DNA of 26,055 nucleotides from Thecamonas trahens ATCC 50062 (Eukaryota; Protista; Apusomonadida). The notes below the pieces were generated by a model. The model was not told the DNA's origin, did no database searches, and saw only the letters and a program-made list of their open reading frames with translations. Shown in pieces: positions 149 to 25,990 of this stretch. Within the stretch, counting starts at the first letter, position 1, and each line of letters begins with the position of its first letter. The stretch covers positions 268,318 to 294,372 of the forward strand of contig NW_013657634.1 of the NCBI RefSeq assembly GCF_000142905.1. Direction: 5' to 3'. The position numbers and the translations under genes are program-made.

Positions 149-711
149 TGTGGGTGGTGTGCGGGTGGAGTATGGGTGGAGTATGGGTGGAGTATGGCGT
201 CGTCACGTGTTGCGGTCGTCATGGTGTGGCTTGTTGTTGATGATGATGGTGATGACCATGATGATGGTAATCATTATGATCTTTATGGCGACGATCATTC
301 ATAGGTTGTGGTACATGTAGTGGCTCTGTCGAGTGCGTGGTCTCCTATCACAGTGTCTGGTGCTGCGCTCCCGAGCGCTGGCTAGAGTGTAGCCTGGCTC
401 TCGACGCGGGGTATGGCCAAAGCTGCGACATGCACCGCATACTTGCTCTGCCATCTCCTTCTCCACCTTCTGTCGGTATTTGATCTCTGCTCTGCAGGCT
501 TTCTGACAACTTCTCGCGGCTAGAAGCGTACCTCCACCAGGCGATGATGATGATCATCACCCTACGGCAGTGATGGTGACGACGTCCTTCCAATCCTGTT
601 TGTGGTTGCAAGTAATCGAAAAAATGAACCCAGGAGAACGAATAGCAATGACAAAGGACCAAGTGGAGGGCGAGAGAGAGACAGAGCCACCACTCGACTC
701 CAGCCCGCACC

Positions 712-729
712 ATGTCGTCGCAGCCTTCG
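712..729 (+). CDS. MVP: Major vault protein, exon 1 (MSSQPS).
   Basis: ATG at 712, six codons, then GTACGC at 730. With the exon 2 junction this gives MSSQPS|VIRVPPFSYIHILD, which matches the vertebrate MVP N-terminus M-x5-IIRIPPYHYIHVLD in length and sequence. Confidence 0.75.
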
Positions 730-955
730 GTACGCAGCCACAGCACCCGCCCTCCCCACACATACGCACACACACAAGCACTACAAGCACTACACGCTAC
801 TCCCTCCCAACCTCCCCCCCTCCTCCCCCCCCTTTTACCCCATTCCCCCCCCTCCCCTCCTTCCCCCCCCCCTCGCCCCGTCCCCCTCCCCCTCCACCTG
901 GCAATGGAAAGAAAGCCCCTCAGCGTTCCTTCCACCCCTTCCCCACCCTCCACAG
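730..955 (+). other. Spliceosomal intron (226 nt, phase 0) in MVP. Donor GTACGC, acceptor CACAG.
   Basis: GT at 730-731 and AG at 954-955. The interior is pyrimidine-rich with a poly-C/CT tract at 820-900 and CA repeats at 760-800. Removing it restores the conserved MVP N-terminus in frame. Confidence 0.75.
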
Positions 956-3523
956 GTCATTCGTGTCCCGCCGTTCTCGTACATCCACATTCTGGATAAC
1001 AATGTCAATGTGACGTCGATTGTGGCAGGGCCGCGGACGTACACTCGCCCGGATCATGTCCGGGTTGTGCTGGGGCCAGAGAAGATGATTACCATTCCGC
1101 CTCGGCACTACTGTGTGGTGGGTAACCCGGTGGTTCGCGATGACGGGGGCAACCCGGTGGTGGACGAATACGGGCAGTACAAGCTGCGGTTTGGCGACGA
1201 GGAGGTCCGCGAGGCGCAGGACCGTTTCCCGCTGTACCCGGGCGAGTCGCTGGTGACAGGCGTGACGCAGATGCCGGTGATCGAGACGAACACGGCGATG
1301 CTGCTGCGGGCCAAGCGCGATTTTAAGCAGACGCTTGCCGACGGCGCGACTGTCGACCGCATTGCCGGTGAGGAGTGGCTTGTTCGTGGGCCGACCGTGT
1401 TCAAGCCGATGGTGGAGGCCGAGTATGTGCGGACGGTGGAGGCGACGGTGGTGCGGCCGAACCAGGCGCTGCGTCTGCGTGCACGGCGCGACTGCATCGA
1501 CGCCAATGGGGTGCAGCGGCGGACGGGCGAGGAGTGGCAGCTGCGGTCCGAGGGCGCATACCTGCCGTCCGTTCACGAGGTGGTTGTCGACGTTGTCTCG
1601 GCGTATGTGCTGACCGAGAAAACGGCGCTGCACCTTCGTGCGACGCGCAACTTTGACGACGCGCTCGGAGTGAGCCGCCGGGCCGGCGAGGAGTGGTTGG
1701 TCACGCTCGCCGACGCCGACCAGTACATCCCGGATGTGTACGAGGCTGTGGTGGGCCAGATCGAGATCACGACGCTGACGAACCGGCAGTACTGCGTGGT
1801 GGTGGACCCTGTCGACGCGAAGACCGGTCGGCAGCGGTTCGGGCACCGCGAGGTGCGGATCGGCGAGCGGTCGTTCTTCCTCAACCCAGGCGAGCGACTC
1901 GAGTCGGGCATCGAGGACGTGTACGTGCTCGGCGAGGACGAGGCGCTGGTGATCCGCGCCAACCAGGCGTTTGACGACGTGGTGGCGAGCCGCGGCGCCG
2001 ACGGGGCGGTGACCGAGACAACGGTGGCGCGGACGCCCGGCGACCTGTGGATGATCATGGGCCCGCGCGAGTACTTTCCGCGGGTCGAGGTCTCTGTTGT
2101 TGACGTCCGGCGGGCGATTCCGCTCGACGACAACGAGGGCATCTACGTCCGCAACATCACGTCTGGCGAGGTGACGGTTGTCTCGGGCGAGAGCTACATG
2201 ATCCGCGAGGACGAGGAGCTGTGGCGCAAGGAGCTGCCGGCCGACGTGGAGGCGCTGCTGGCCAACGCTGCGACGCGCGACCCGCTGGCAGACCGGCACG
2301 CCCGCGGCAACGACGACAACACCTCGGCGTCGGGTCGCGACATGACGCGGGCGGTGACGTTCCGGGTCCCGCACAACGCGGCGGTGCAGATCTACGACTA
2401 CAAGCTCAAGGAGTCGCGGGTGGTGTTTGGCCCGGACCTTGTACTGCTCCGGCCGGACGAGCAGTTTACGCCGATCTGCCTCTCGGGTGACAAGCCGAAG
2501 CGGCCGAACGTGATCAAGTCGCTCGCGCTGCTGCTCGGCCCGGACTTTGCAACAGACATCATCACGGTGGAGACGTCGGACCACGCCCGGCTCTCGCTGC
2601 AGCTCTCGTACAACTGGCACTTTGACGTCGACCGGTCGTCGCCCGAGTCGGTCCGCAAGCTCTTTTCGATCTCGGACTTTGTGGGCGACATGTGCAAGCG
2701 CATCGCGTCTCGGGTCCGTGGCGCTGTGGCGCAGGTTCCGTTTGACGTCTTCCACAAGACCTCGGCGACGCTCATTCCCGCGGCCCTGTTTGGGCAGGAC
2801 GACGAGGGCAACGTCGGCAGCTACTACAAGTTCCCGGGCAACAACCTGGTCATCACCTCGATTGACATCCAGTCGGTGGAGCCGGTCGACCAGCGGACGC
2901 GCGACTCGCTCCAAAAGTCGGTCCAGCTCGCCATCCAGATCACCACCGCCTCGCAGGAGGCGACGGCCAAGCACAACGCCGCCCGCGTCGAGCAGGAGGC
3001 CCGCGGCGCGCTCGAGCGCCAGCGCATCCAGGACGAGGTCCGCGCCGAGGAGTCGCGCAAGGAGCTGCTCTCGCTCAAGGCCCTCTCTGCCGCCGTCGCC
3101 TCGTCCGGCCAGGCCACCGCAGAGGCCAAGGCCCGCGCTGAGGCCGCCAAGATTGCTGGCGAGTCGTCGCTCGAGGAAGCCAAGCTCAAGGTCAAGGCCC
3201 AGGAGATCGAGTCCACCGCCGAGCTTGCCCGCCTCGTCGCCCACCAGAACGCAGAGGTCGACCACATGCGCAAGCTCAACGAGCTCGAGGTCGCCAAGGC
3301 CCGTGCAGAGGCCGACATTGAGACCAAGCGCTGGGTCGAGTCGGTCGCCGCCCTCGGCCCCGAGACCATCCGCGACCTTGCTCGCGCCGGCCCCGAGACC
3401 CAGGTCGCGCTCCTCAAGTCGCTTGGTATCTCGTCGGTCCTCGTCACCGACGGCAACTCGCCCATCAACCTCTTCAACACCGCCTCGGGTCTCATCGGCT
3501 CGGGTGCCGGCGCTGACCAGTAG
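956..3523 (+). CDS. MVP: Major vault protein, exon 2 (vault repeats, shoulder and cap-helix).
   Basis: Near-colinear matches to MVP: PPRHYCVV, FPLYPGE, ALRLRARRDC, TGEEWLV (repeated), NEGIYV, VPHNAAVQIYDY, LLLGPDF, DHARLSLQLSYNWHF, SVEPVDQRTRDSLQKSVQLAIQITT, and a coiled-coil C-terminus ending PINLFNTASGL. Stop TAG at 3521-3523. Confidence 0.92.
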   Translation, partial: VIRVPPFSYIHILDNNVNVTSIVAGPRTYTRPDHVRVVLGPEKMITIPPRHYCVVGNPVVRDDGGNPVVDEYGQYKLRFGDEEVREAQDRFPLYPGESLVTGVTQMPVIETNTAMLLRAKRDFKQTLADGATVDRIAGEEWLVRGPTVFKPMVEAEYVRTVEATVVRPNQALRLRARRDCIDANGVQRRTGEEWQLRSEGAYLPSVHEVVVDVVSAYVLTEKTALHLRATRNFDDALGVSRRAGEEWLVTLADADQYIPDVYEAVVGQIEITTLTNRQYCVVVDPVDAKTGRQRFGHREVRIGERSFFLNPGERLESGIEDVYVLGEDEALVIRANQAFDDVVASRGADGAVTETTVARTPGDLWMIMGPREYFPRVEVSVVDVRRAIPLDDNEGIYVRNITSGEVTVVSGESYMIREDEELWRKELPADVEALLANAATRDPLADRHARGNDDNTSASGRDMTRAVTFRVPHNAAVQIYDYKLKESRVVFGPDLVLLRPDEQFTPICLSGDKPKRPNVIKSLALLLGPDFATDIITVETSDHARLSLQLSYNWHFDVDRSSPESVRKLFSISDFVGDMCKRIASRVRGAVAQVPFDVFHKTSATLIPAALFGQDDEGNVGSYYKFPGNNLVITSIDIQSVEPVDQRTRDSLQKSVQLAIQITTASQEATAKHNAARVEQEARGALERQRIQDEVRAEESRKELLSLKALSAAVASSGQATAEAKARAEAAKIAGESSLEEAKLKVKAQEIESTAELARLVAHQNAEVDHMRKLNELEVAKARAEADIETKRWVESVAALGPETIRDLARAGPETQVALLKSLGISSVLVTDGNSPINLFNTASGLIGSGAGADQ

Positions 3524-9824: not shown

Positions 9825-10110
9825 GATTAGTCGTTGCCCATGGTTAGTCGTTGCCCATGGTTAGTCGTTGCCCATGGTTAGTCGTTGCCCATCATCAGTC
9901 ATTGCCCATCATCAGTCGTTGCCCATCATCAGTCGTTGCCCATCATCAGTCCTTGCCCATCATCAGTCCTTGCCCACCATCAGTCATTGCCCATCATCAG
10001 TCGTTGCCCATCATCAGTCGTTGCCCATCATCACTCGTTGCCCATCATCACTCGTTGCCCATCATCACTCGTTGCCCATCATCAGTCGTTGCCCATCATC
10101 AGTCATTGCC
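9823..10110. repeat. 17-bp minisatellite of about 17 tandem copies (consensus CATCATCAGTCGTTGCC, with variants CATGGTTAG.., ..CACTCG.. and ..GTCCTT..).
   Basis: Exact 17-nt periodicity across 288 bp. It starts at the F-box/WD start codon and ends about 100 bp before the myosin ATG. Confidence 0.95.
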
Positions 10111-10139
10111 GCCATTCCAACGGCCCAACACCACGTCAC

Positions 10140-10200
10140 TGCCACCACCACACACTCACACACACACACATCCACAAACACACACACACACACATCCATA
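10140..10200. repeat. Imperfect (CA)n microsatellite immediately upstream of the myosin ATG.
   Basis: The sequence reads cacacactcacacacacacacatccacaaacacacacacacacacatcc. Confidence 0.85.
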
Positions 10201-10208
10201 CACATACC

Positions 10209-13200
10209 ATGTCGACCCTCCAGATAGGTGACATGTGCTGGGTGGAGAACCTGGCAGCAGGTACTAGCGGAGGAGAGCAGGCCTCCCATGGCCACCACCC
10301 GTCGCGAGTGGCAGGCAAGGTCCTCGCCGTCTCGGACTCGATGGTGACGGTGGCCCCAGAATGGGGCGAGCTCTGTCCGACCTGTGCCCTCAAGCCGGAG
10401 CATACGCCTGCTCATCGTCCGGCAAAGGTCAACGTTCCGCTGGGAAACTCGGCAGACGCGGGCCAGCTCGCCGTGAGTGTCATGGACACGTCCAACGCCG
10501 AGGGGAGGGCAGACATGATGGAGCTGGCTGATCTGGCGGTGGGCGAGCTGATGTACAACCTGAGGTTGAGGTACAAGGCCCAGCCCATGCAGTTCTACAC
10601 ATATGTCGGGGACATCCTGGTTGTCGTCAATCCCATGGCGGACATGGGCGTCTCTGGCGAGGAGACAAAGGCTACGTACGCCGGCCTGCCGTTCCGCGAT
10701 GCGAGCGCCCCGCCGCACATCTACGCCGTCGCCGAGGCTGCCCACAAGGCGCTCGCCGAGACGGCCGCTCCGCAGGTCATCGTCATCTCGGGCGAGTCTG
10801 GCGCTGGCAAGACATACGCCACCAACGACGTGCTCGACTTTCTGGCCTACCGCGGCAGCGGGTGCGACCCAGCTCCTGCTCCCGGTCCTAACGCTGGCGC
10901 TGCTCCTTCTCCGCCCGGGGCGGAGATTGTGGCCAAGATCCGGGCTATCTCGGGCGTCATTGAAGCGCTGGGCAATGCCAAGACGTCGCGGAACCACAAC
11001 TCGTCGCGGTTTGGCAAGCTCGTCAAGGTCCAGTTCGACGAGGCCGGGGCCATCGAGGGCGCCGCGCTGCAGACGTACCTACTGGAAAAGTCGCGGATTG
11101 TCGACCAACAGCCCGGTGAGCGCAACTACCACATCTTCTACCTCATGTTCCAGTTCCTCGACCGCGGTGAGCGGTCGGCGCGCGGTCTCTCGGACTCGGT
11201 CGCGGACTACCCGTACCTCGTCGGCTCGCACGGCAAGAACGCCAAGTCATGGCAGTACATGCCTAGCGATCCGTCGGCGCCGCAAGCCGGGCTCGAGCCC
11301 ATGGCCGACGCCAAGCGGTGGGAGGCGTTCATCGACGCTGTTGTCACGCTTAACCTCGAGGACGATCTCTCGTGCGTGTGGGACACGCTCGCCGCCATCC
11401 TGCACCTCGGCACGCTGACTTTTGAGGAGCACGCTGGCTCTTCGACCGGCTTTTGCACCGTCTCGCCGCCTGGAGTTGTCTCGCGCATTGCAGGCCTCCT
11501 CGCTGTCGACGCCGACGCTCTGGCCACCAATCTGCTCTCGTGCGAGGTCGTCAACATGCGCCGTGCGTACCGACCCGACAAGGCCAAGCAGACCGCCGAC
11601 GCGCTGGCCAAACTCCTTTACGCCTCGCTCTTTGACGTCATCATCGAGCACATCAACGCGTCGATCAAAACCGGCTTCACCCGCCGGTGGATCGGCGTCC
11701 TCGACATCTTTGGCTTTGAGTCGTTCCAGTCGCTGCCGGACAAGCACGGCGTGCCCGACACCGCCAACCGGTTTGAGCAGCTCTGCATCAACCTCACCAA
11801 CGAGCGCCTGCAGCGGTTCTTCTACGACCAGCTCATTCCCAAGCAGCTCGCCCACTACGCCGACCACGGGCTCGACGTCGACGCCATCGAGTACGACGAC
11901 AACACCCTCTGTGTCAACCTCATCATGGAGGGCCGCAAGTCGCTCTTTGGCGCCCTCAACAACGCCACCAAGGAGGCTGCCACCCTTCCGGCCTTCCGCA
12001 ACAACCCGGAGCTTGCCGAGCGGCGCTGGGTCGAGACCATCAAGTCGACGTACAAAGGCGGCAAAGGCCGTCTCGCGCCCTCGACCGTAGTCCGCAAGTC
12101 CTCGCCCGACGAATTTGTCGGCTGGTTTGATGACAAGCTTGACTCGCGGGCCCACACCCAGTTTGCCGTCCACCACTACGCTGAAACCGTGTGGTACACC
12201 GTCGACGGGTGCGTCGAGAAAAACGCCGACAAGATTGCCCCCGAGCTTGTCACGCTTGTCTCGTCCTCATCGGCCGCCTTTGTCGCCGGCCTTTTTGATC
12301 CGGACCGCCTCGAGCTCAACACCTCGGTTGCCGACAAGTTTGCCGAGCAGCTGCGGGCACTCGTCTCGCCGGCGTCGTGGAACGTGCCTGGCCACCCGTC
12401 GGGCATGCTTGACCTTGCAGCGGAGCCTTTTTTCGTTCGCTGCGTCAAGCCAATCTGCTCGCGGGTGCCCGGCATGCCGCGTGCGCCGCTCTCCAACCAC
12501 AAGGTGCTCGACCAGCTGCGGTCCGCCGGTATGTACGCGGTCATCCAGATGCGGCTTGCCGGCTATGCGTCTGAAGTGGACAAGGCCCAGTTTGTCGAGA
12601 CCTACACCGAGCTTGTTGACGACATGGCAGCGTTCAACTCACTCTCGCTTGACAACCAAGTCCGCTCCATTTGTGCATCCGTCGTCGCCTCTACTCAGCA
12701 CGACTTGACAAGCGAATCCGGCATGGCGCCGTACCAGATCGGCAACTCAAACCTGGTCTTCCTCAAGGACGCCATGAACTACGCCCTGCGCGACGCGCTC
12801 GCTGCGGCTCGCGCGGCGCGTGCGGCCAAGCAAGCGCTGGCGCTCTCGCATTTTGCGGCGCTTTTCTCGATGTGGAGCGTCCGCCAGTCGATGCCGCGGC
12901 TGGTGCAGGTCTACGAACAGAACCAGGAACGCCTCGAGTTTATCCGGACCCGCATCGAGGGTGGTGCAAGCGAAGCAGAGGCCAAGGCCGCATGGGACGC
13001 CGAGCTCGCCACCCGCGCCGCGGCCATGGAGGCCGAATACAAGCTCGAGCATTTTATCCCGCTGCAAAAGGCCGCCGCCGCCGAGCCAGTCGACAAGCTC
13101 GACGCCGCCATTGCCAACATGCTCAAGGACGAGCCAGCCGGTGAGGCGCGCGCGGCTCTCGAGGCTAGGCGCAAAGCGCTGAAGGCATCGGCCAAGGCGG

Positions 13201-14846
13201 TTAACGCCGCGCTTGCTGCGCTCGAGGCCGACGTGTACAACGCCGAGGCCGAGACCGCTGCCGCAGACGCCATTGCTGACCTGGACGCAGTTGTTCTCGC
13301 CGAGGAGGCCGCGTATGCAGAGGACGTCAAGCGGCGCGAGGCGGCCGCCGCTGCTGCTGCTGAAGCCGCGTACATTGCCACGCATGTGACGTCGGTGGAG
13401 ACTGCGGCGAACGCGGTGCCGTTCGCCAAGGTCAAGGCCGCACTCACGGCGTTTGGCAAGCGGCATGCCAACATCCTCGGCAAACGCGAGAACCTTGAGA
13501 GCGCACTCCATGCTCATGGGGCCTCGCTCGACGACGCTCGCGCAGCGCTTGAGGCGCGGCTGGACGAGTTGCGGGCAAGCCCGCATTCAGACGAAGTGCA
13601 AGCCGGGGTGGCGACGGCGCTATCGGCGCTCGAGGTGCTCGTTGGCGGCGTCCACGAGTTCCTGCGGCTGATGGAGGAGCGCGTGGCGATGGCAGCGGCG
13701 GCGGAGGAAGCCAAGGAGCGCAAGCGCGAGGCGCGGCGCAGAAAGCGTGAGGCGCGCGAGGCACGGAAGCGCAAGCTGCTGGAGGCGCGGCAGGCCATGC
13801 TCTCGGCGCAGGAGCGAGTGGCCGCGGAGCGGGCGGCGGAGCGCAAGCGGCAGGAGGAGGCCAAAAAGCGGGCGGTGAAGCTGCTCAAGAAGAAGCAGAA
13901 GCGGCGGCTGCGGTGGTTCGAGACAGCAAGCGTGGCCATGGACGGCCTGCGTGTCTTGTTCCACCATGCCGAGGCCACGGTGCGGTACCTTGGCCCGCTG
14001 CCGTCGGCATCGGTCAACCTCCTCACGGCGCCCTACTACATCGGGCTGGAGATGCCGTATCCGTCGGATTTGTTCAACTCGGGTGACTACGAGGGTACGC
14101 AGCTGTTCGAGTGCTCGCCGGAGCATGGCATGTTTGTGGCGCAGGACTTGGTCTCGGTCCTGGTCGCCAGCGACGAGCTTCGCGCCGGCGAGCGGCATCT
14201 GCAGGTCGGCGACCGGGTGTGGCGGCGGAACCATGTTCCGCTGCAGACCGGCGTCATCATGTACTACGGTGAGACTCACTTTGACGAGGGCCCGTTTGTG
14301 GGCATCGCCCTCGACCAGGCCGGCTCTGGCACCAACTCGGGCCGGGTCCACGGCTTCAAGTACTTTAAGTGCGCCAAGGACTCGGGCCTGTTTCTGCGGC
14401 CAGAAGAGCTCGAGCGGATAGAGCCGTGGTCGCACTCTGTCGTCAAGGAGCGAACCAACGAGTACATGATTCTTAACGACATTTATCTCGACGACGACGA
14501 GTACTCGGAGTACGATGGTGACGAGGAGGATGGGACCAGCTCGCGGGCCAGCTCACGGCCGGCGTCGGGTGACGACTCGTCGTCGGGCGCGGTCTCCGAG
14601 ACCGTTCTAGACGCCATGGATCCCGACGAGCTCTACGCGCTTGCCGGTGGCGATGCCATGCTGACCGACGGCGCGTCTGAGCCGCTCTCGTCGGGAGTGC
14701 GGCTCAAAAAGTCACGGCTCTCGCGGCGCGGATCGGGCGCCGGTCGGTCGATGTCGATGCGCAATGTCGAGACAGCGCGGAGTGGACATCTAGTGCCGCC
14801 GATGCAGCGGGCGGCGTCGTCGCGAAACCGGATGCGCCGACGGTAG
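10209..14846 (+). CDS. Myosin heavy chain (motor domain, ~600 aa coiled-coil/charged tail, C-terminal CAP-Gly domain).
   Basis: Motor motifs are the P-loop GESGAGKT (10791-10814), switch I NSSRFGKLV, switch II LDIFGFE, LRLRYKA, and an HIFY-type relay. The tail is rich in A/E/K/R heptads. The C-terminus carries a CAP-Gly signature LQVGDRVWRR..GVIMYYGETHFDEGPFVGIALDQAGSGTNSGRVHGFKYFKCAKDSGLFLRPEEL (~14196-14430). The start is taken as ATG 10209 (MSTLQIGD), after the minisatellite. The upstream part of the ORF track entry 9885-14846 is a translated repeat. Confidence 0.9.
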   Translation: MSTLQIGDMCWVENLAAGTSGGEQASHGHHPSRVAGKVLAVSDSMVTVAPEWGELCPTCALKPEHTPAHRPAKVNVPLGNSADAGQLAVSVMDTSNAEGRADMMELADLAVGELMYNLRLRYKAQPMQFYTYVGDILVVVNPMADMGVSGEETKATYAGLPFRDASAPPHIYAVAEAAHKALAETAAPQVIVISGESGAGKTYATNDVLDFLAYRGSGCDPAPAPGPNAGAAPSPPGAEIVAKIRAISGVIEALGNAKTSRNHNSSRFGKLVKVQFDEAGAIEGAALQTYLLEKSRIVDQQPGERNYHIFYLMFQFLDRGERSARGLSDSVADYPYLVGSHGKNAKSWQYMPSDPSAPQAGLEPMADAKRWEAFIDAVVTLNLEDDLSCVWDTLAAILHLGTLTFEEHAGSSTGFCTVSPPGVVSRIAGLLAVDADALATNLLSCEVVNMRRAYRPDKAKQTADALAKLLYASLFDVIIEHINASIKTGFTRRWIGVLDIFGFESFQSLPDKHGVPDTANRFEQLCINLTNERLQRFFYDQLIPKQLAHYADHGLDVDAIEYDDNTLCVNLIMEGRKSLFGALNNATKEAATLPAFRNNPELAERRWVETIKSTYKGGKGRLAPSTVVRKSSPDEFVGWFDDKLDSRAHTQFAVHHYAETVWYTVDGCVEKNADKIAPELVTLVSSSSAAFVAGLFDPDRLELNTSVADKFAEQLRALVSPASWNVPGHPSGMLDLAAEPFFVRCVKPICSRVPGMPRAPLSNHKVLDQLRSAGMYAVIQMRLAGYASEVDKAQFVETYTELVDDMAAFNSLSLDNQVRSICASVVASTQHDLTSESGMAPYQIGNSNLVFLKDAMNYALRDALAAARAARAAKQALALSHFAALFSMWSVRQSMPRLVQVYEQNQERLEFIRTRIEGGASEAEAKAAWDAELATRAAAMEAEYKLEHFIPLQKAAAAEPVDKLDAAIANMLKDEPAGEARAALEARRKALKASAKAVNAALAALEADVYNAEAETAAADAIADLDAVVLAEEAAYAEDVKRREAAAAAAAEAAYIATHVTSVETAANAVPFAKVKAALTAFGKRHANILGKRENLESALHAHGASLDDARAALEARLDELRASPHSDEVQAGVATALSALEVLVGGVHEFLRLMEERVAMAAAAEEAKERKREARRRKREAREARKRKLLEARQAMLSAQERVAAERAAERKRQEEAKKRAVKLLKKKQKRRLRWFETASVAMDGLRVLFHHAEATVRYLGPLPSASVNLLTAPYYIGLEMPYPSDLFNSGDYEGTQLFECSPEHGMFVAQDLVSVLVASDELRAGERHLQVGDRVWRRNHVPLQTGVIMYYGETHFDEGPFVGIALDQAGSGTNSGRVHGFKYFKCAKDSGLFLRPEELERIEPWSHSVVKERTNEYMILNDIYLDDDEYSEYDGDEEDGTSSRASSRPASGDDSSSGAVSETVLDAMDPDELYALAGGDAMLTDGASEPLSSGVRLKKSRLSRRGSGAGRSMSMRNVETARSGHLVPPMQRAASSRNRMRRR

Positions 14847-17602: not shown

Positions 17603-18785
17603 CAGCCATAGAGGAGGCCCAGACGGAACCCAGCGTCTCTCGTATACCCTCTAGCGACTCGGTCCGTCTTGTCCGTCCTCTTCGCTCTGAAAGCTGCCCT
17701 CCTCTCGGCAGTCGGCTGCGCCGACCTGCTGATGACGACGATGACGACCGCGCCCAAATCGAGCCGTGGTCGTTGCTTTTGTCGTTGTAGCCATCGTTGT
17801 TGCAGTCATCGCCGTTGCCTGCTGGCTGGGCCATCTGCTGCCGATTCGATACCGTCTCGCGGTGCCTCAGTCTGCGATCTGTCGATGGCTTCATCTGCTT
17901 GCTCTTGGACCGAGTCTGGTCGCTGGCATGCGCACTCGTCACCTGTGACCTCCCTCCGTTTGCTGCCGGTTGTGTATGCAGAGATTCAGTGCTCCAGCTC
18001 GAGGTCGACGAAGCCATCACGGCTCGAGTAGAGGGGTGTCCGAGTTGGGTGCGACGGGCTACACCTGTCGAGTCGCCAGGACTGGCGGCGTGCGGATGGC
18101 GCCTTGGCAGCTCCGACTGTGTCGACACAGTTGGCTCGTGAGGAGCAGGAGCTCATCCATCCCGCCCGTTGATGACGATCCATGATGACGATCATGATGG
18201 GTGTCTTCTTGGCGGCCAATTCCTACCTTGATCGCATGCGTACGCAAGCATGTGGGTCATCCGTGCCAAGCGGCAGCTGCACGGATGTGCTGGCATAGAG
18301 GCTGATGAGACCGTCGAGCCAGCGGATCGACCACTTGGCCGGCAACCAATGGTGTGGCCAGATCAGCTGGTAAACATCGCTGCTCACTCGGGTGCTCATG
18401 TGTCAGCACAGAGTCACCTCATCGCTTGCGAGAGGTCATGCCCGACTGCCGAGTGCCGAGTGCGCGGGCAGAGTTTGGTCAGCAGCCGGCCGCTTCCCGA
18501 GCCGGAGCCACATACACGCACACCCTTGACACTTGACGCAGGCGGGTACACACTTGACGAGATATGTCTGCAAGAGGTAGTGGAAGCTCTGCATCGGCGT
18601 CTGGGTGGTGCCTGCCGACGGCGGCAGGCTCTGGTTGGGCCTTCTGGAAGGAGGTCAAGGCCGACAAGCACAGGCTGTTCACCATGCAGAAGCACAAGAG
18701 CCATGGCAAGTCGAGGTTCTCGGCTTTGGCGTCATCGGTTACCGTATGTGAGTGTGTGTATGGGGGAGGAGTGGGAGGAGTGGGA

Positions 18786-18825
18786 GGGGGGGGGAGGGGG
18801 GGGGGGGGGGGGGGGTGGACTCATG
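18786..18825. repeat. Poly-G / GGGAGG homopurine tract.
   Basis: The sequence is gggaggggggggggagggggggggggggggggggggtgg, followed at 18837-18905 by a (GGTGAT/GGTGGT)n microsatellite. Confidence 0.9.
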
Positions 18826-18979
18826 AGTGGTGATGGTGATGTCGATGGTGATCGGGGTGGTGATGATGATGCTGGTCGGGGTGGTGATGGTGATGATGGT
18901 TGTGCGGGCTATGGCCATGGTGGTTATGCGGGTTGTGTGGGTCGTGGTCATCTGGGTCAAACAGAAAACGGTGCGCGGC

Positions 18980-21160
18980 ATGGTGAACAAAGAGGATCAC
19001 AAGCCGTTCCGCATTCTGATGGACGCAGCGGGTCCGGCGCCCAAGGTTGTGGGCACGTTTGAGGACAAAGTCGCTGCAGAGTCGGCGTGGAAGTTCCTGA
19101 CTGGCGTCATGCTCCCGCTTGTGGATGCCGAGTTTGGCACGGACTTTGACCGCGCCGCCGTTCTTGCCTACCTCGGCATCGAGTTCTCGGACGGGCTCGA
19201 CGAGGACCAGTACATGGAGCTGGCCCGGGTGCGAAACGGATCGGCCGGTGCTGTCGCCGAGTACGAGGCCCGTCTAGCGGCCGAGCAGGCAGAGGCCCTA
19301 CGTGCGGCCGAGGCAGACGGCTCCAAGATCATCATGCTCTCGGTGACCGAGGCCACTGCCCAGGGCCAGATTCTTATGCACGGCGGCGCGGTGCTGGACG
19401 CTGCGCTGGCCAAGGTTCGTGACGAGGCCGGCCCATCGGCGGAGCCTCAAACACCCTCTGGCGGCGACAACGCGGATGGCGCTGATGCTGTGGATAGCAC
19501 CGATGCGGCCGGAGCTGAATCGGGCGCGTCGTCGGACGCGTTTGCGGACGACTCGGACTCGGACGGCGATGAAGCGGGGAGCAGCGCGGCACCCGTACAG
19601 CCTGTGCCGGAGCAGGAGTCTGTGCCGGACGAGGTCAAAGTCGATGCGCCTACCAACGATGATGAGGGCGAGGCCGTGGAAACGACCACAGCCGCAGAGC
19701 CAGTGCCGCTCTCACCCGAGGTATGCCACGCCATTGTAACGCTGGTCATCCTGCACACGCCGCTGGTTGTGATGGACGCCAACGATCTCCAACCGCGGCT
19801 GTGCGAGCGGTTCTCGCTCCCGGAAGCCTCACTCGCAGCCATTGTCAAGACCGCCGGCGAGGGCGAGGATTATCGGCAGCCGCAGATCCAGGTGGCGCTG
19901 GAGACGCTGCTGCGCGAGAACGTGGACCGGGCTGCGCTCCTCCGCGAGGTCCTTGTCCTCGCTCTGGCTTCGTCCAAGTACGACGCACGGATGCGGCAGT
20001 CGCTGCGGCTGATGGCGCGGTCGGCCGGAGTCGACTGGATGGCGTTTGTCAAGGCCGAGGATGAGCTGGCGACGATGCTGCGGACGATGCTGACGGCCGA
20101 AGTCGACGAGACGGTCAAGGCCAAGTCGGCGTCGTCGGGTCGGGCATGGAAGATGGGCGGGGCGGCGCTGCTCGGCGGAGCGGCACTGTTTGTGACCGGC
20201 GGCCTTGCGGCGCCGCTGGTGGCGACCGCGGTCGGGACCGGGATGGTGCTCGGCGGGGCGGCGGCGACGACAACAACAACGGTCATGGTTGGCGCGTATC
20301 TCATCACGCCGACGGTGCTTGGCACGGCCGGCGCCGGGCTGTCCTACTACAAGATGGACAAGCGGACGGCTGGGCTCGACGAGTTTGGCTTTGTCTCGGC
20401 CCGTGGCGAGGGGGTGAGCGCCGGCGAGGGCATGCACGTCACGATCTCGGTCTCGGGCTGGCTTGAGGCCGAGGAAGAGGCCGGCAGTGAGTGGTCCAAC
20501 GTATACACGGCGGCGCCGCACGGCGAGTCGTACGTGCTCCGGTGGGAGTCGGACCATCTGCGGACGCTTGGTGAGGCGTACCGCTCGTTCATTCGCGAGT
20601 CGGCCAAGTCAATGGTGGTGGGCGAGATCCTCAAGCGGACCATTCTCGGCGCAGCGTCGTTCCCGCTCCAAGTCCTCGGCTTTGCCAACATCATCGACAA
20701 CCCGTGGTCGATGGTCATGGATCGGGCGCGCAAGGCCGGCAACCTTCTCGCGCACGTCCTCACCGACGCGCATCACGGGGCGCGGCCGGTGACACTTGTT
20801 GGCTACTCGGCCGGCGCACTTGTCATCTTCCACGCGCTGCGGGCGCTCGCGGATGCCGGCGTCGTCGACGTCGTCGACAACGTCGTTCTCGTCGGCGCGC
20901 CCATCCACGAGTCGTCAAGCGAGTGGGCGCGGGTCCGCGCGGTGGTCGGCGGCAACTTTGTCAACGCGTACCAGACCAGCGACTGGATCCTCGGCATCCT
21001 CTCGCGGGTCTCCCATTCGACCAAGCCCGCTGCCGGGCTCTCGCCCATCTACGTTCCTGGCATCATCAACGTCAACCTCGATGGGCTTGTCCAGGGCCAC
21101 ATGGACTACAAGACCGCGTTGCAGGACATCATGCTCATTCTGTTCCCGTGGCTTGTGTAA
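18980..21160 (+). CDS. DUF726 / TMCO4-like protein (alpha/beta-hydrolase-like with transmembrane glycine-rich segments).
   Basis: The C-terminal region RPVTLVGYSAGALVIFHALRAL...VVLVGAPI (about 20781-20900) matches the DUF726 family signature seen in TMCO4 and yeast Mil1. Upstream hydrophobic G/A-rich TM segments read GGAALLGGAALFVTGGLAAPLVATAVGTGMVLGG. The start is taken as ATG 18980 (MVNKEDHKPF). The ORF-track start at 18827 lies in a GGTGAT microsatellite (MVMVMSMV...). Confidence 0.75.
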   Translation: MVNKEDHKPFRILMDAAGPAPKVVGTFEDKVAAESAWKFLTGVMLPLVDAEFGTDFDRAAVLAYLGIEFSDGLDEDQYMELARVRNGSAGAVAEYEARLAAEQAEALRAAEADGSKIIMLSVTEATAQGQILMHGGAVLDAALAKVRDEAGPSAEPQTPSGGDNADGADAVDSTDAAGAESGASSDAFADDSDSDGDEAGSSAAPVQPVPEQESVPDEVKVDAPTNDDEGEAVETTTAAEPVPLSPEVCHAIVTLVILHTPLVVMDANDLQPRLCERFSLPEASLAAIVKTAGEGEDYRQPQIQVALETLLRENVDRAALLREVLVLALASSKYDARMRQSLRLMARSAGVDWMAFVKAEDELATMLRTMLTAEVDETVKAKSASSGRAWKMGGAALLGGAALFVTGGLAAPLVATAVGTGMVLGGAAATTTTTVMVGAYLITPTVLGTAGAGLSYYKMDKRTAGLDEFGFVSARGEGVSAGEGMHVTISVSGWLEAEEEAGSEWSNVYTAAPHGESYVLRWESDHLRTLGEAYRSFIRESAKSMVVGEILKRTILGAASFPLQVLGFANIIDNPWSMVMDRARKAGNLLAHVLTDAHHGARPVTLVGYSAGALVIFHALRALADAGVVDVVDNVVLVGAPIHESSSEWARVRAVVGGNFVNAYQTSDWILGILSRVSHSTKPAAGLSPIYVPGIINVNLDGLVQGHMDYKTALQDIMLILFPWLV

Positions 21161-21284: not shown

Positions 21285-21347
21285 TGGCAGCTGGTAGCTG
21301 GCAGCTGGTAGCTGGCAGCAAGTAGTTGGTAGCTGGCAGCTGGTAGC
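21285..21347. repeat. 14-bp tandem repeat (TGGCAGCTGGTAGC)x~4.5. Each unit carries a CAGCTG E-box palindrome.
   Basis: Direct repeat 275-340 bp upstream of the ATG at 21622. It is followed by a GCAGC-rich stretch and a (CA)n tract at 21470-21512. Confidence 0.85.
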
Positions 21348-21478
21348 CCGCAGCAGCCCCAGCAGCGGCAGCCGGCGGCCGGCAGAGCCAACCGGCAGCC
21401 GTTCCCCAACGACCTCACCGCCCGACCCCACCACTCTCACAGCCCAGGGACCCACCCCGCCACACCCACGCACACCCA

Positions 21479-21510
<32 letters not shown>

Positions 21511-21621
21511 GGGAGTGAGCATATCCCCCTGTGTGGAGGAAGCAGTTGTAGTTGCAGACTCTGTGGCCACGGGGGCCGCATTCGTAGCACCACCACCACA
21601 GGGCAGAGGGGGGAGCAAGTC

Positions 21622-24600
21622 ATGGACAGGAGCCGAGACAGGGAGGGGGGGAGCAAAGGGGAGGGGGGTACCATGTCCATGAACAAAGACGGGATGGGCA
21701 TGGGCATGGGCGTGGAGGCGGACATGGACATGGCCACGGAGGCGGGCGTGGACGTGGGCGCGGACATAGGCTTGGACACGGGCATCGTAACGGGCACGGA
21801 GGCTGGCATTGTCAGGGGCGCAGACACGGGCATGGATGTGGCTCTCACGCCGCCGACTGTGGACCACGTCCAGGCAACAGGTCGGGCCCTGGTCGATGTG
21901 GTTAAGCAACAGGCAGAGGAGATCAAGGTGCTCAAGGCTCAACTGGATGGTGCCAACCGGCAGCTAGTGTTGGCGGAGGAGGAGAAAGGCGCTGTCAAGC
22001 AGCTGCTCGTCAAGACGGAAGTCAACTTGGCCAACCAGGTCGCGGCCAGAAAGACGCTGGCCAAAAGAGTTGTCGCCGTCTTGGATGCTCTCCGGACTGG
22101 CGTTCTTGATCTGGCACATGTCACCGCGGCGCTGATGGATGGTTGCTCTCCTGAGACTGATGAGACTGTGTCGGGGGAAGACATTGTCGAGCCCGTTGCC
22201 GAGAATCGGCCGCAGATGCGTAAGTGGCGGCAGGGCACGTCAGGATTCAAGACCTCGCCGGCACTGGAGAAGCTCAAGGCACGTCAAGAAGCGATGCGTA
22301 AGCAGCGCGCGGCGGCGGCAGCAGCCGCTGACGCCGACGCCGACGCCGACGATGGCGACGGCGATGGCGATAGCTCCGACTCTTATGGTTCGGTTGTCGA
22401 GCACGACGATGAGCCTGCAGCCGAGGTCAAGACCGAGGCTCGGCCACAGATGCGCAAGTGGCGGCAGGGCACGTCAGGATTCAAGACCTCGCCGGCACTG
22501 GAGAAGCTCAAGGCACGTCAAGAAGCGATGCGTAAGCAACGCGCGGCGGCGGCTGCTGCCGCCGCCGACGCCGACGCCGACGCCGACGATGGCGACGGCG
22601 ATGGCGATAGCTCCGACTCTTATGGTTCGGTTGTCGAGCACGACGATGAGCCTGCAGCCGAGGTCAAGGCCGAAGCTCGGCCACAGATGCGCAAGTGGCG
22701 GCAGGGCACGTCAGGATTCAAGACCTCGCCGGCACTGGAGAAGCTCAAGGCACGTCAAGAAGCGATGCGTAAGCAACGCGCGGCGGCGGCTGCTGCCGCC
22801 GCCGACGCCGACGCCGACGCCGACGATGGCGACGGCGATGGCGATAGCTCCGACTCTTATGGTTCGGTTGTCGAGCACGACGATGAGCCTGCAGTCGAGG
22901 TCAAGGCCGAAGCTCGGCCACAGATGCGCAAGTGGCGGCAGGGCACGTCAGGATTCAAGACCTCGCCGGCACTGGAGAAGCTCAAGGCACGTCAAGAAGC
23001 GATGCGTAAGCAACGCGCGGCGGCGGCTGCCGCCGCTGACGCCGACGCCGACGCCGACGATGGCGACGGCGATGGCGATAGCTCCGACTCTTATGGTTCG
23101 GTTGTCGAGCACGACGACGGCTCCGAGTCAGCCGACTCGGTTGTCGAGCACGACGACAAGCCTGTTGGCGAGACCCGCTCATGGCGTGCAGGCTTCAACA
23201 CGTCGCCAGCACTCGAGCGGCTGACCGAGACACGGAGCGCCGCTGCGGGCAGAGTACACCCTGCGGCCAACGCCGGAGGCACTGACGATGCTGCAAAGCC
23301 GGTCGAGCGCCCGCAGATGCGCAAGTGGCGCCAAGGCACCACAGGATTCAAGACCTCGCCGGCGCTAGGGAAGCTCAAGGCGCGGCAGGAGGCTATGCGC
23401 AAGCAGCGCGCAGCTGCGGCTGTGGCTGCGACTACGGCTGCTGTCGCTGACGCGGACGCTAGTGATGACTCGGACTCGTGTGGCTCGGTTGTCGAGCGCA
23501 GCTCCGAGGGCTCGAGCTCGGCGGGCTCGATGGTGGACAACGGCTCGCCAGCGCCGCGCGAGATCCTCGGTCTTCCAGCCGAGTCCCCGCCGAACCGCCG
23601 CGCCGGGCGGCCCGAGTCGCTGCGCGACCGACGCCTGCGGCTGCGCAACACCCGGCGGGCGACGTCGTCGGACCACACCATGGACGCGGCCATGCGCGCC
23701 GCCATGCTCCGCGCCGGCCGCACCATGTCGGCGTCGGCCGCCGAAGAGCGGTTCGAGGAGCAGCAGAGCCAGTCCGAGCTCGAGGCTGCAGCCAACGCTG
23801 CGCACAATGAGGCGAACTCGACAACGCTCTACGACAGCAGCAGCGACGGTGATGACGATGTCATCGTCGTCAATGCAGCTACGAGTGGCATCGCCAGAGG
23901 CCACTCCTGGCTCGACGTCGAGCGCCCGCGCGGCGAGGCCATCGACTTTGAGCACAAGCCCAATGCCCGCGGCCTTAACGTCTCGTTCTCGTCGAACCTC
24001 TCCCACATCTTCGGCGAGACGTCATCCGACGACGACGACGATGTACCCGACGCCAGCGCCACCACTGCCGAGCTCTTGCGGCAGCTGGTCGAGGCTCGCA
24101 AGGAAAACATTGATCTCGCGCGAACGGTCTCTGAGCTCACGCTCGAGGTGAGCCGGCTGACGCAGTCACTCACCGCAGCCTCGGCGGCGAAAGCGTCATT
24201 GGCTGCGGGCGCGGGCCTCATAGTTGCAGGCGTGCAGACCGAGCCGCGGATTGTGGACAACGTGGCGGTGCAGACGCTCCCGCCTGACGTCGCCCATGTG
24301 AGTGTGCAGACCGAGGTGGAACGCGACGGCGGGCCGGTGAGTGCGGCTGGAGCCAGCAACGTCAAGCTCGACGAGCTCTCGTCGCAGTTGCATCTGGCGC
24401 AAGCGCAGAACGAGGAGCTGATGCGGATGCTGCGGTCGCCGTCGCTCTCGCTCTCGCCGATGCCGCGGTCCCCGTCGGCAGCGTCGCCTCTGACGCCTGT
24501 GACGGCGCGGGCGCGGTCCTCGTTCTCGCGCTCGCCGTCGCTCACGGGATCATCGCCGGTCCCGCTCGACTCGCCGGCGCGGGCACGGGCGCGGGCAGCG

Positions 24601-24666
24601 TTTGAGCGGCGGCTGGCGCGGACAGCGCGGTACGTCCACCAGCAGGAACTCCGACCTCTATCGTAA
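21622..24666 (+). CDS. Novel low-complexity coiled-coil protein with four near-identical 79-aa tandem repeats (RPQMRKWRQGTSGFKTSPALEKLKARQEAMRKQRAAAAAA-DADADADDGDGDGDSSDSYGSVVEHDDEPAAEVKAEA) and a fifth degenerate copy.
   Basis: A 1014-codon ORF. It carries in-frame 237-bp units at 22207, 22441, 22678 and 22915, with more than 97% nucleotide identity. A diverged copy sits at about 23311-23500. The N-terminus is a degenerate 12-nt periodic G/D/M-rich region (21706-21850). Heptad coiled-coil segments flank the repeats. The C-terminus is S/P/R-rich. I recognise no conserved domain. The start codon is uncertain. Confidence 0.6.
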   Translation: MDRSRDREGGSKGEGGTMSMNKDGMGMGMGVEADMDMATEAGVDVGADIGLDTGIVTGTEAGIVRGADTGMDVALTPPTVDHVQATGRALVDVVKQQAEEIKVLKAQLDGANRQLVLAEEEKGAVKQLLVKTEVNLANQVAARKTLAKRVVAVLDALRTGVLDLAHVTAALMDGCSPETDETVSGEDIVEPVAENRPQMRKWRQGTSGFKTSPALEKLKARQEAMRKQRAAAAAAADADADADDGDGDGDSSDSYGSVVEHDDEPAAEVKTEARPQMRKWRQGTSGFKTSPALEKLKARQEAMRKQRAAAAAAAADADADADDGDGDGDSSDSYGSVVEHDDEPAAEVKAEARPQMRKWRQGTSGFKTSPALEKLKARQEAMRKQRAAAAAAAADADADADDGDGDGDSSDSYGSVVEHDDEPAVEVKAEARPQMRKWRQGTSGFKTSPALEKLKARQEAMRKQRAAAAAAADADADADDGDGDGDSSDSYGSVVEHDDGSESADSVVEHDDKPVGETRSWRAGFNTSPALERLTETRSAAAGRVHPAANAGGTDDAAKPVERPQMRKWRQGTTGFKTSPALGKLKARQEAMRKQRAAAAVAATTAAVADADASDDSDSCGSVVERSSEGSSSAGSMVDNGSPAPREILGLPAESPPNRRAGRPESLRDRRLRLRNTRRATSSDHTMDAAMRAAMLRAGRTMSASAAEERFEEQQSQSELEAAANAAHNEANSTTLYDSSSDGDDDVIVVNAATSGIARGHSWLDVERPRGEAIDFEHKPNARGLNVSFSSNLSHIFGETSSDDDDDVPDASATTAELLRQLVEARKENIDLARTVSELTLEVSRLTQSLTAASAAKASLAAGAGLIVAGVQTEPRIVDNVAVQTLPPDVAHVSVQTEVERDGGPVSAAGASNVKLDELSSQLHLAQAQNEELMRMLRSPSLSLSPMPRSPSAASPLTPVTARARSSFSRSPSLTGSSPVPLDSPARARARAAFERRLARTARYVHQQELRPLS
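22207..23118 (+). repeat. Coding minisatellite: 4 x ~237-bp near-identical tandem units inside the CDS 21622-24666.
   Basis: Units 2 and 3 differ by about 1 nt (gcagccgag versus gcagtcgag). Unit 1 is 3 nt shorter. Confidence 0.95.
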
Positions 24667-24715: not shown

Positions 24716-25707
24716 TTACTCGGAAGCAGCAGGCGCCTCGGCAGTGGCCGCAGCCTCGCCATCAAGCGTCTTCTGCTTCTTGGCGGGCGCCGCGCCGTCG
24801 TCGCCGGCTGCGGCGTCGTCCTCGGCCTTGCGCTTGGGGGCAGCGTGCTGGATGCCCTTGGCGCCCATGCGCGAGATGCGGCCGCGGACGCGGGCCTCGA
24901 CAACGCCGTGCCAGTACTTGGTCTCGGCCTCGCCGTCGACAACAGCAACAGCAAAGACCTTGTCGGCCAGGGTGCGCTTGGTATCGTCGGTGGAGAGGTC
25001 GGCGACGGCGGCGGCGGCGACAGGGGCGGCGAAGCGGATGTAGCCCTCGGTCTGGCCGCGCGAAAAGTCGACGCGCTGGACGTCGCCATAGGCGCGGAAG
25101 ATGGGGAGCATGTCTTCGCGGGAGATGCCCTCAGAGGCCAGCTCGGTCACGTGAACAACACAGCCGGGGATGACGTCAAAGGCGGCGATCTCAGCGGCAA
25201 CCTCGGCAGCGATGGCCTCCTCGGTCGGCGGCGCAGCGGCAGCCTTGGATGCGTTGCGGCGCTCGATCTTCTTGGCGCGGGCACGGGTGAGGTAGTCGAG
25301 CTTCATCTCCATGGCCAGCGGCTCCAGCTCGGGCGCAGCGCGGATCTCCTTGGCAATGATGGCCTTGGCCTCGTCGACGGTGGCAAACTCGACAAAGGCC
25401 GAGCCCTTGAACAGATGGGTCTGCGGGGTGCGGCGGAGGCGGACGGAGAGCACCTTGCCGTGCTCAGCAAAGAGCTCGGTGATCGACTCGATGGTCGTCA
25501 CCTCACCATCACGAACAAAGCCCTTGGCGTAAATCGACCGCTCATCGATGTCGAGCTTGGCCGGCAGCGGCTGAGCCCGACGGACGTTCTTGCCGTCGTC
25601 CGAGACAACCAGGGCGTCCGACTCGCCCAGAGCCGCCGCCAGGGCCTCGTTGTCGAGTCCCATCTGCTGCACACGCTTGAACTTGGCGAGCTCCTCAAGA
25701 GGAACAA
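24716..25707 (-). CDS. La protein (La motif + RRM + C-terminal basic NLS), exon 2.
   Basis: After splicing the protein reads ..NSDG-F-VPLEELAKFKRVQQ, which resembles the La motif ..KLDEGWVPLEIMIKFNRL. An RRM follows (SIYAKGF...KGSAFVEFATVDEAKA), then a second RRM-like region and a KRK/KKQK tail. The stop lies 49 bp from the stop of the repeat-protein gene. Confidence 0.85.
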
Positions 25708-25869
25708 CTACATATGGATGTGGATGCAAGTGAGTGGGTGTGGTCAATGACCTTGGTGGGGGGAGGGGAGGGCGGAGGAGGGCAGTTTGCGGAGATGATG
25801 GCCATCTCGGCTCATCCCAGACGGCAAGGGCCAGGGCATGGGTGGGATGAGGGGCAGGGCAGTGCGTAC
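25708..25869 (-). other. Spliceosomal intron (162 nt, phase 1) in the La gene. Donor GTACGC, acceptor TATGTAG.
   Basis: On the minus strand the junction reads gac ggc t|GTACGC ... tatgtag|tt gtt cct. Removing the intron deletes an in-frame P/H-rich low-complexity insert (CTHCPAPHPTH...HLHPHPY) from the middle of the conserved La motif. It creates codon TTT (F), which aligns with the W of the La consensus. The intron is C-rich on the transcribed strand. Confidence 0.8.
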
Positions 25870-25990
25870 AGCCGTCAGAGTTCTGGGCAGTGAGGTTAAG
25901 GAGGTACTTGTCACGCGGGAGGTTCGAGTCGGAAAAGTAGAACTCGATCTGCTTGCGGGCGCGGGCTGCGGCGGAAGTCGTGTCAGCCAT
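25870..25990 (-). CDS. La protein, exon 1 (MADTTSAAARARKQIEFYFSDSNLPRDKYLLNLTAQNSDG).
   Basis: The La-motif core QIEFYFSDSNLPRDKYL is present. The ATG at complement 25988-25990 is directly preceded, on the transcribed strand, by a poly-C tract (the + strand G-tract at 25992-26029). Confidence 0.85.

Follow-up and report, generated by a model that had tools for sequence, protein, structure and literature searches.

A tandem-repeat protein of Thecamonas trahens with a constrained basic peptide in a charge-blocky, mostly disordered array

In the N-terminal region of nucleolin and in Nopp140 and Treacle, basic stretches with S/T-P sites alternate with acidic, serine-containing tracts of the CK2 type, and this alternation is repeated along a disordered region. 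A related arrangement is found in Ki-67, where the tandem repeats are disordered and their charge alternates in blocks, a pattern that drives phase separation and multivalent self-association (Yamazaki et al. 2022, PMC9106583). Here we describe a gene with a comparable layout in a stretch of 26,055 nucleotides (hereinafter, the window) from the genome of the apusomonad Thecamonas trahens ATCC 50062 (RefSeq assembly GCF_000142905.1, contig NW_013657634.1, positions 268,318 to 294,372 of the forward strand). The product of this gene, AMSG_09429, contains tandem units that each join a basic and an acidic block, and the basic peptide of the unit, judging from codon comparisons, is under strong purifying selection. 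By analogy, AMSG_09429 is most similar to the charge-blocky, disordered tandem-repeat scaffolds, yet it does not belong to any of them by sequence.

The repeats are encoded in the longest open reading frame (ORF) of the locus, which spans positions 21622 to 24666 of the plus strand (as do all features of this gene given below), comprises 1014 codons plus a stop codon, and matches the deposited "uncharacterized protein" AMSG_09429 (968 amino acids; XP_013754791.1, KNC53124.1, UniProt A0A0L0DLB4) with 100% identity across 95% of the ORF length. In this ORF, Tandem Repeats Finder (TRF) delineated a single strong array, located at 22206-23117, with a period of 237, 3.9 copies, 97% matches, no indels and a score of 1712, in agreement with the original prediction, made from the DNA alone, of a 237-bp unit repeated four times in frame. 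When the ORF frame is followed, the units start at nucleotides 22207, 22441, 22678 and 22915, and their conserved lengths are 78, 79, 79 and about 68 residues, respectively. Each unit consists of RPQMRKWRQGTSGFKTSPALEKLKARQEAMRKQR, an alanine tract and DADADADDGDGDGDSSDSYGSVVEHDDEPAAEVKAEA, with the DADADADDGDGDGD tract included, as the prediction had it; the alanine tract is seven residues long in unit 1 (u1) and unit 4 (u4) and eight residues long in unit 2 (u2) and unit 3 (u3). The two central units, u2 (22441 to 22677) and u3 (22678 to 22914), differ by a single nucleotide. The claim that units differ by at most three nucleotides holds for this pair and for the first approximately 204 nucleotides of u4 (22915 to 23118), the unit that ends the array. 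It fails for the other edge unit, u1 (22207 to 22440), which shows 8-9 substitutions, mostly synonymous, and a 3-nt indel relative to u2 and u3, as well as for the last approximately 33 nucleotides of u4, which have no similarity to the other units. An additional SVVEHDD sub-repeat follows u4 (TRF period 18, 23098-23155). The synonymous divergence (dS) among u1-u4 is only 0-0.13, so the four-unit block is young, and the expansion is recent, as had been surmised; because divergence is greater in the edge units than in the central units, which is the usual signature of unequal crossing-over, we infer that this process shaped the array.

Outside the young array, two older copies of the motif are discernible. 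The diverged fifth copy (u5), the existence of which had been predicted, starts at 23308 and contains the complete 35-residue basic motif (23308 to 23412), which is identical to the young copies in 33 of the 35 residues although 17 of the 35 codons differ. Its tail (23413 to 23508) is Ala-rich and acidic/Ser-rich, so that the composition is kept and the sequence is not: this Ala/acidic half has diverged with indels, and apart from the composition, only a GSVVE element remains. Between u4 and u5 lies a decayed sixth copy, ETRSWRAGFNTSPALERLTETRS (23170 to 23238), which the original prediction had missed and which retains the W, R, G-F, TSPAL and L elements but has lost most of the basic residues. 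The residues that persist even in this decayed copy, namely, R, W, R, G-F, T-S-P-A-L and L, are common to all six copies and define the core of the motif. A tblastn search of the rest of the 26-kb window detected no further copies, the next best match having an E-value of 0.24.

The comparison of u5 with u2 is the most informative one for the question of whether the motif is a functional peptide or a by-product of repeat dynamics. Among the 35 motif codons, there are 17 nucleotide differences, 15 of which are third-position changes in the ORF frame; 15 codon changes are synonymous and two are nonsynonymous (S to T and E to G). By the method of Nei and Gojobori (NG86), this corresponds to a nonsynonymous divergence (dN) of 0.025 and a dS of 1.19. 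Were single-base changes to hit the motif at random, 24% of them would be synonymous; on this basis, the probability of observing at least 15 synonymous changes out of 17 is 3.7e-8. In the two other sense frames, all differing codons are nonsynonymous, and the three reverse frames give synonymous/nonsynonymous counts of 3/14, 10/4 and 1/14, none of which equals the 15/2 of the ORF frame. Within the motif, u1 and u2 show the same tendency, with three synonymous and no nonsynonymous codon differences. Lack of translation in this frame had been named beforehand as one of the findings that would refute the prediction, and this point is answered in its favour, by an evolutionary argument rather than by transcript data. 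Since neither recency nor gene conversion can yield the pattern observed in u5, the motif is translated in the ORF frame and maintained by purifying selection.

These observations bear directly on the possibility that the repeats are selectively neutral, that is, that a low-complexity stretch in a fast-evolving protein recently expanded through slippage or unequal crossing-over, the motif has no function of its own, and the uniformity of the units reflects recency or gene conversion. The near identity of u2, u3 and u4 at the DNA level, the low complexity and free divergence of the acidic half in u5, and the lack of homologues would all be expected under this scenario. However, recency and gene conversion are insufficient to account for a copy that is saturated at synonymous sites and almost unchanged in protein sequence, and the W, G-F and TSPAL core persists even in the copy that has otherwise decayed, so we consider neutrality quite unlikely. 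A similar comparison can be made with the coding minisatellites of lineage-specific proteins, for example, protist surface or cytoskeletal repeats, with which AMSG_09429 shares near-identical central units, diverged edges, an in-frame unit and restriction of the gene to one lineage. Unlike what is generally the case in such concertedly evolving arrays, here an old copy is available beyond the young array, and it proves that one half of the unit has long been constrained. With a dN/dS of approximately 0.02 on a 35-residue peptide and an acidic tail that is held only in composition, the locus is a clean, small coding minisatellite in which what selection sees can be separated from what it does not.

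The same data speak to the more mundane explanation that the gene is an artefact, be it an ORF that arose by chance from a high GC content or a repeat that was wrongly assembled. The window has a GC content of about 58-69% and contains many long overlapping chance ORFs in other frames, and for the central units, which are nearly identical, the number of copies comes from the assembly only and may, as had been supposed, be polymorphic or collapsed. Against this, the third-position substitution bias is restricted to the ORF frame, the GC content at third codon positions of the ORF (0.74-0.83) is similar to that of the neighbouring genes, the edge units can be told apart, the junctions with the flanks are unique, and the ORF is 1014 codons long. 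An artefact is thus exceedingly unlikely, and AMSG_09429 is a genuine, translated protein-coding gene without detectable relatives. The 5' end of the deposited model is less clear. Matching the N-terminus of the deposited protein to the DNA places its first exon, ATGGCAGCTG, at 21285 to 21294; a GT...AG intron (21295-21770) then joins it to GCTTGGAC... at 21771, to give MAAGLDTG. This end of the model looks uncertain because the first exon is only 10 nt long and lies at the start of a heptamer repeat. Translation could alternatively start at the in-frame ATG at 21622; whichever start applies, the repeats are coding. Directly upstream of the ORF, in the 5' intron of the deposited model, there are a (TGGTAGC)9 repeat (21285-21347) and a (CA)n microsatellite (21461-21510). 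Further downstream, two imperfect 24-nt (8-codon) repeats at 21699-21833 encode an N-terminus rich in Gly, Asp and Met (GMGMGMGVEADMDMATEAGVDVGADIGLDTGIVTGTEAGIV); the deposited model assigns part of this stretch to the intron.

AlphaFold2 (AF2) modelling of the full protein without an alignment gave a mean predicted local distance difference test score (pLDDT) of 45 and predicted disorder apart from a small set of helices, the protein being mostly disordered between helical, coiled-coil-like ends. The N-terminal helix is long and has heptad character (residues 80-173, 21859 to 22140). When this region was folded alone, it formed one continuous helix of 95 residues (ORF residues 80-174, block-mean pLDDT 88-96), whereas in the full-length model, the helix is split at 121-122 into segments 80-120 and 123-173 with pLDDT of 65-87. 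A scan of the a/d heptad positions found windows with at least six of eight of these positions occupied by L, I, V or M at residues 79-173 and 816-863, and we consider the N-terminal helix to be a probable oligomerising coiled coil. At the C-terminal end, the model contains a helix at residues 812-872 (24055 to 24237), with heptad character at 816-863, a second one at residues 916-937 (24367 to 24432), and a terminal basic helix at residues 985-1008 (24574 to 24645). The latter is preceded by an S/P-rich segment (residues 938-984, 24433 to 24573) that includes eight [ST]-P sites, so the heptad-helical flanks and the S/P-rich C-terminus that had been read from the sequence are both present.

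Between the helical ends, AF2 predicts exactly one helix per repeat unit, starting at the Pro after the conserved Ser (for example, residues 213-232), and the remainder of the unit has a pLDDT below 50. The start of this helix fits an S-P-x-x-E capping box, and the helix runs on through the seven or eight alanines, after which the disordered, acidic, Ser-containing block follows. The original prediction had called the basic segment amphipathic, and this part has to be dropped: for SPALEKLKARQEAMRKQRA8, scanned in windows of 18 residues, the Eisenberg hydrophobic moment is only 0.09-0.27. The 35-residue basic block carries a net charge of +9 and the acidic block a net charge of -14, which gives -5 for the unit; the net charge of the whole protein is -40. 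Across residues 196-510, the charge segregation parameter delta is 0.117, compared to 0.055 +/- 0.009 in 200 shuffled sequences (z = 7.2), and kappa is approximately 0.34. In addition, each unit contains one S-P site and one S-x-x-E site.

In all these respects, the resemblance to the repeat domain of Ki-67 is apparent: both proteins consist, in this part, of tandem, mostly disordered units in which positively and negatively charged blocks alternate and which contain phosphorylatable Ser/Thr residues. With its blocks of opposite charge in a disordered tandem repeat, AMSG_09429 is charge-blocky like Ki-67, given its +9/-14 blocks, the z-value above and the low pLDDT outside the unit helix. The two proteins are nevertheless unrelated in sequence, with no match to the K167R family in Pfam-A (separate pieces of the protein, E <= 10) and no phmmer match (residues 432-1014). 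Moreover, the unit of AMSG_09429 is 79 residues long, its charge blocks exist without phosphorylation, and each unit combines a poly-Ala helix with a W/F peptide that is under constraint, with coiled-coil ends flanking the array. Phase separation would be a possibility here by analogy. The likeness to nucleolin, Nopp140 and Treacle lies in the same alternation of basic and acidic stretches; again, no homology was detected, and none of them has a W...G-F-x-TSPAL core, a poly-Ala spacer or coiled coils at the flanks.

Taken together, the repeat structure, the predicted helices and the charge pattern suggest that AMSG_09429 is an oligomerising, multivalent, charge-blocky scaffold, a picture to which we assign a probability of roughly 0.55. 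The original prediction had likewise proposed a multivalent scaffold or binding module, a role with which this architecture would be consistent. Its descriptive basis, that is, a real, translated gene with helical ends, a disordered middle, six constrained motif copies and a recent fourfold expansion, is close to certain. In this picture, the terminal helices would oligomerise the protein, and the basic W/F peptide together with the adjoining helix, present in every module, would let it bind a conserved and probably acidic partner in a multivalent manner. The alternation of +9 and -14 blocks might, by analogy with other charge-blocky disordered scaffolds, promote intramolecular or intermolecular electrostatic self-association. 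Phosphorylation at the conserved S-P and S-V-V-E (CK2-type) sites of each unit could tune this association and would make a plausible switch, and unequal crossing-over may have recently increased the valency. A more far-reaching proposal is that the 35-residue module (R-x-W-R-x2-5-G-F-x-T-S-P-A-L-x-[KR]-L, followed by the charged helix) is an undescribed, selectively maintained ligand-binding repeat that founds an apusomonad-restricted family, with its copy number just raised fourfold for the sake of valency and the acidic block acting as a built-in counter-ion or autoinhibitor; we put this forward tentatively, with the odds somewhat against it.

A different possibility is that the motif is a docking peptide of an already known class. 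Three classes come to mind, namely, an EF-hand (calmodulin or centrin) site of the 1-8-14 type formed by W202, F209 and L215, an arginine-anchor binder of chromatin or nucleic acids, and an S-P-x-x-E phospho-site of the CDK/Fbw7 type. The W-x6-F-x5-L spacing fits the first of these, the net charge of the basic segment is high, and S-P-A-L-E is found in five of the six copies. All these matches, however, are pattern resemblances. Furthermore, the stretch from W to L contains G205, G208 and P213, and AF2 models no helix there; the Glu is replaced by Gly in the otherwise conserved fifth copy; and S-P-x-x-E can equally well be a helix N-capping box, the predicted helix indeed starting at this point. 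A known docking class is therefore very unlikely in our assessment. Several more specific candidates were rejected on individual residues: an LC3-interacting region/Atg8-interacting motif (LIR/AIM) at DSYGSV, because the Tyr is a Cys in the fifth copy; a PP1-binding RVxF site at LNVSF, which has no basic residue; and Sfi1-type centrin repeats, given that there is no LL or F/L upstream of the Trp and that a Pro occupies position -5.

The search for relatives of AMSG_09429 returned, in essence, the protein itself, and the motif, which had not been recognised as part of any characterised family, indeed appears to be undescribed within the limits of these searches; the sequence of the protein is already public as that of an uncharacterised protein. 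An exhaustive phmmer search of residues 432-1014, a query that includes three motif copies and the entire C-terminal half, against 1.84 billion cluster representatives had the protein itself as the sole match (in a database of this size, the 35-residue motif alone cannot attain significance). A word-index protein search with the whole protein as the query likewise returned only itself. Exact-sequence look-ups of the contigs encoding the ORF and the deposited protein had neither on record and thus yielded no independent copy of the locus. In Pfam-A, where the queries were the whole protein and four pieces of it and the limit was E <= 10, all matches were sub-threshold and either low-complexity, compositional or coiled-coil. 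The only family that matched the repeat unit was PF07941 (K_channel_TID; 22.1 bits for the unit and 16.7 for the whole protein, with a gathering cut-off of 25), and this match is compositional because the alignment sits on the poly-Ala/acidic tract (unit residues 27-57). PF02879 (PGM_PMM_II) scored 20.9 bits against a cut-off of 29.3, and none of the matched stretches passed on its own; KIF9, PUMA_CC and Cnn_1N had E-values of 0.07 or worse; and the MCPVI match was of the same sub-threshold compositional or coiled-coil kind. There was no match in NCBIfam. Among PDB sequences, neither the whole protein nor a profile of three motif variants had a significant match, the best one, a stretch of isochorismate lyase, KWRYSAFKKTPLLERMKETQ, having an E-value of 0.15 and being taken as chance. 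In the JGI metagenomes, the motif profile and the N-terminal helix gave pattern matches, none of which was confirmed by tblastn.

Several considerations nonetheless weigh against the scaffold interpretation and against the orphan status of the protein. The exhaustive search was confined to residues 432-1014. Word-index searches with short queries, namely, residues 70-232 (163 amino acids; 253 candidates) and a 40-column motif profile (11 candidates), came back empty, and because they missed even the deposited protein, which is 100% identical to the query, these negatives are uninformative. The deposited protein also carries a precomputed Pfam tag, PF28224.1, which is not in the Pfam-A copy that was searched and which we could not trace to an identified family; a literature search for AMSG_09429 and for PF28224 found no papers. 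By virtue of this tag, a part of the protein might belong to a described family. As for the selection estimates, with no orthologues at hand, they compare copies within a single gene. The unit helix is not amphipathic, so neither membrane-type nor classical calmodulin-type binding is favoured. Finally, the binding and condensate steps of the electrostatic-scaffold mechanism are read from composition alone, and we regard this specific mechanism as rather doubtful.

Some of these points would fit the view that AMSG_09429 belongs, in diverged form, to a family already described, for example, one of cytoskeletal or centrosomal coiled-coil proteins or the family behind PF28224, with a homology that is invisible to single-sequence searches, and that the repeat block is a lineage-specific insertion. 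The Pfam tag, the coverage of the exhaustive scan and the missed self-match are all on the side of this view. So is the sampling of the lineage: according to a 2022 preprint, T. trahens was then the only apusomonad with an available genome (bioRxiv 10.1101/2022.11.09.515670), so that bridging intermediates are missing and the apparent orphan status may be a sampling effect. Conversely, the character of the Pfam-A matches, the empty results for NCBIfam, the PDB and the metagenomes, and the self-only outcome of the phmmer search argue against it, and on balance we judge membership in a described family to be unlikely. If the module, as proposed for the scaffold, binds a conserved cellular component, it would represent a new peptide-recognition motif; otherwise, AMSG_09429 is one more orphan disordered repeat protein. 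In either case, the locus bears on no long-standing open question. It may serve, however, as an example of valency raised through recent duplication of a unit. Apusomonads branch as sister to animals plus fungi, and to our knowledge, their lineage-specific genes are almost unstudied.

The neighbours of AMSG_09429 in the window encode a major vault protein, a PDIA6-like thioredoxin, an ALG9-like mannosyltransferase, an F-box/WD40 protein, a myosin with CAP-Gly domains, a ferric-reductase/NOX-like protein, a DUF726 protein and a La protein. These eukaryotic genes, like the GC content of 58-69%, agree with an origin of the window in apusomonad nuclear DNA. Several of the genes have features of their own. 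In the 1653-aa ORF at 9885-14846 (plus strand), a myosin motor domain (Pfam E = 1.6e-127) occurs together with a tail that carries two CAP-Gly domains (E = 9.8e-28); it is unusual for an actin motor to be joined to a module that binds microtubules or EB1. A 17-bp tandem repeat, AGTCGTTGCCCATCATC (9829-10110; 16.6 copies, 95% matches), the period of which is not a multiple of three, lies where the F-box/WD40 gene of the minus strand meets the beginning of the myosin ORF. In the La protein gene (24716-25990, minus strand), which encodes La, RRM and RRM_3/xRRM domains, the La motif is matched in two stretches that are parted by a Pro/His-rich insertion of approximately 60 residues (HCPAPHPTH...HLHPHPYVVV); this insertion may be an in-frame intron instead of protein. 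The DUF726 gene has a mechanically called ORF that starts at GTG and includes a Met/Val-only stretch (18827-19100) made of (TGGTGA)n and 24-nt repeats, with a poly-G tract before it (18762-18900); this 5' stretch is probably an untranslated leader, with the true start further downstream. The major vault protein gene is complete (602-3523, plus strand) and encodes the Vault repeats and the shoulder domain, and an 884-aa ORF on the opposite strand of this gene, which has no family match, has probably arisen by chance from the high GC content.

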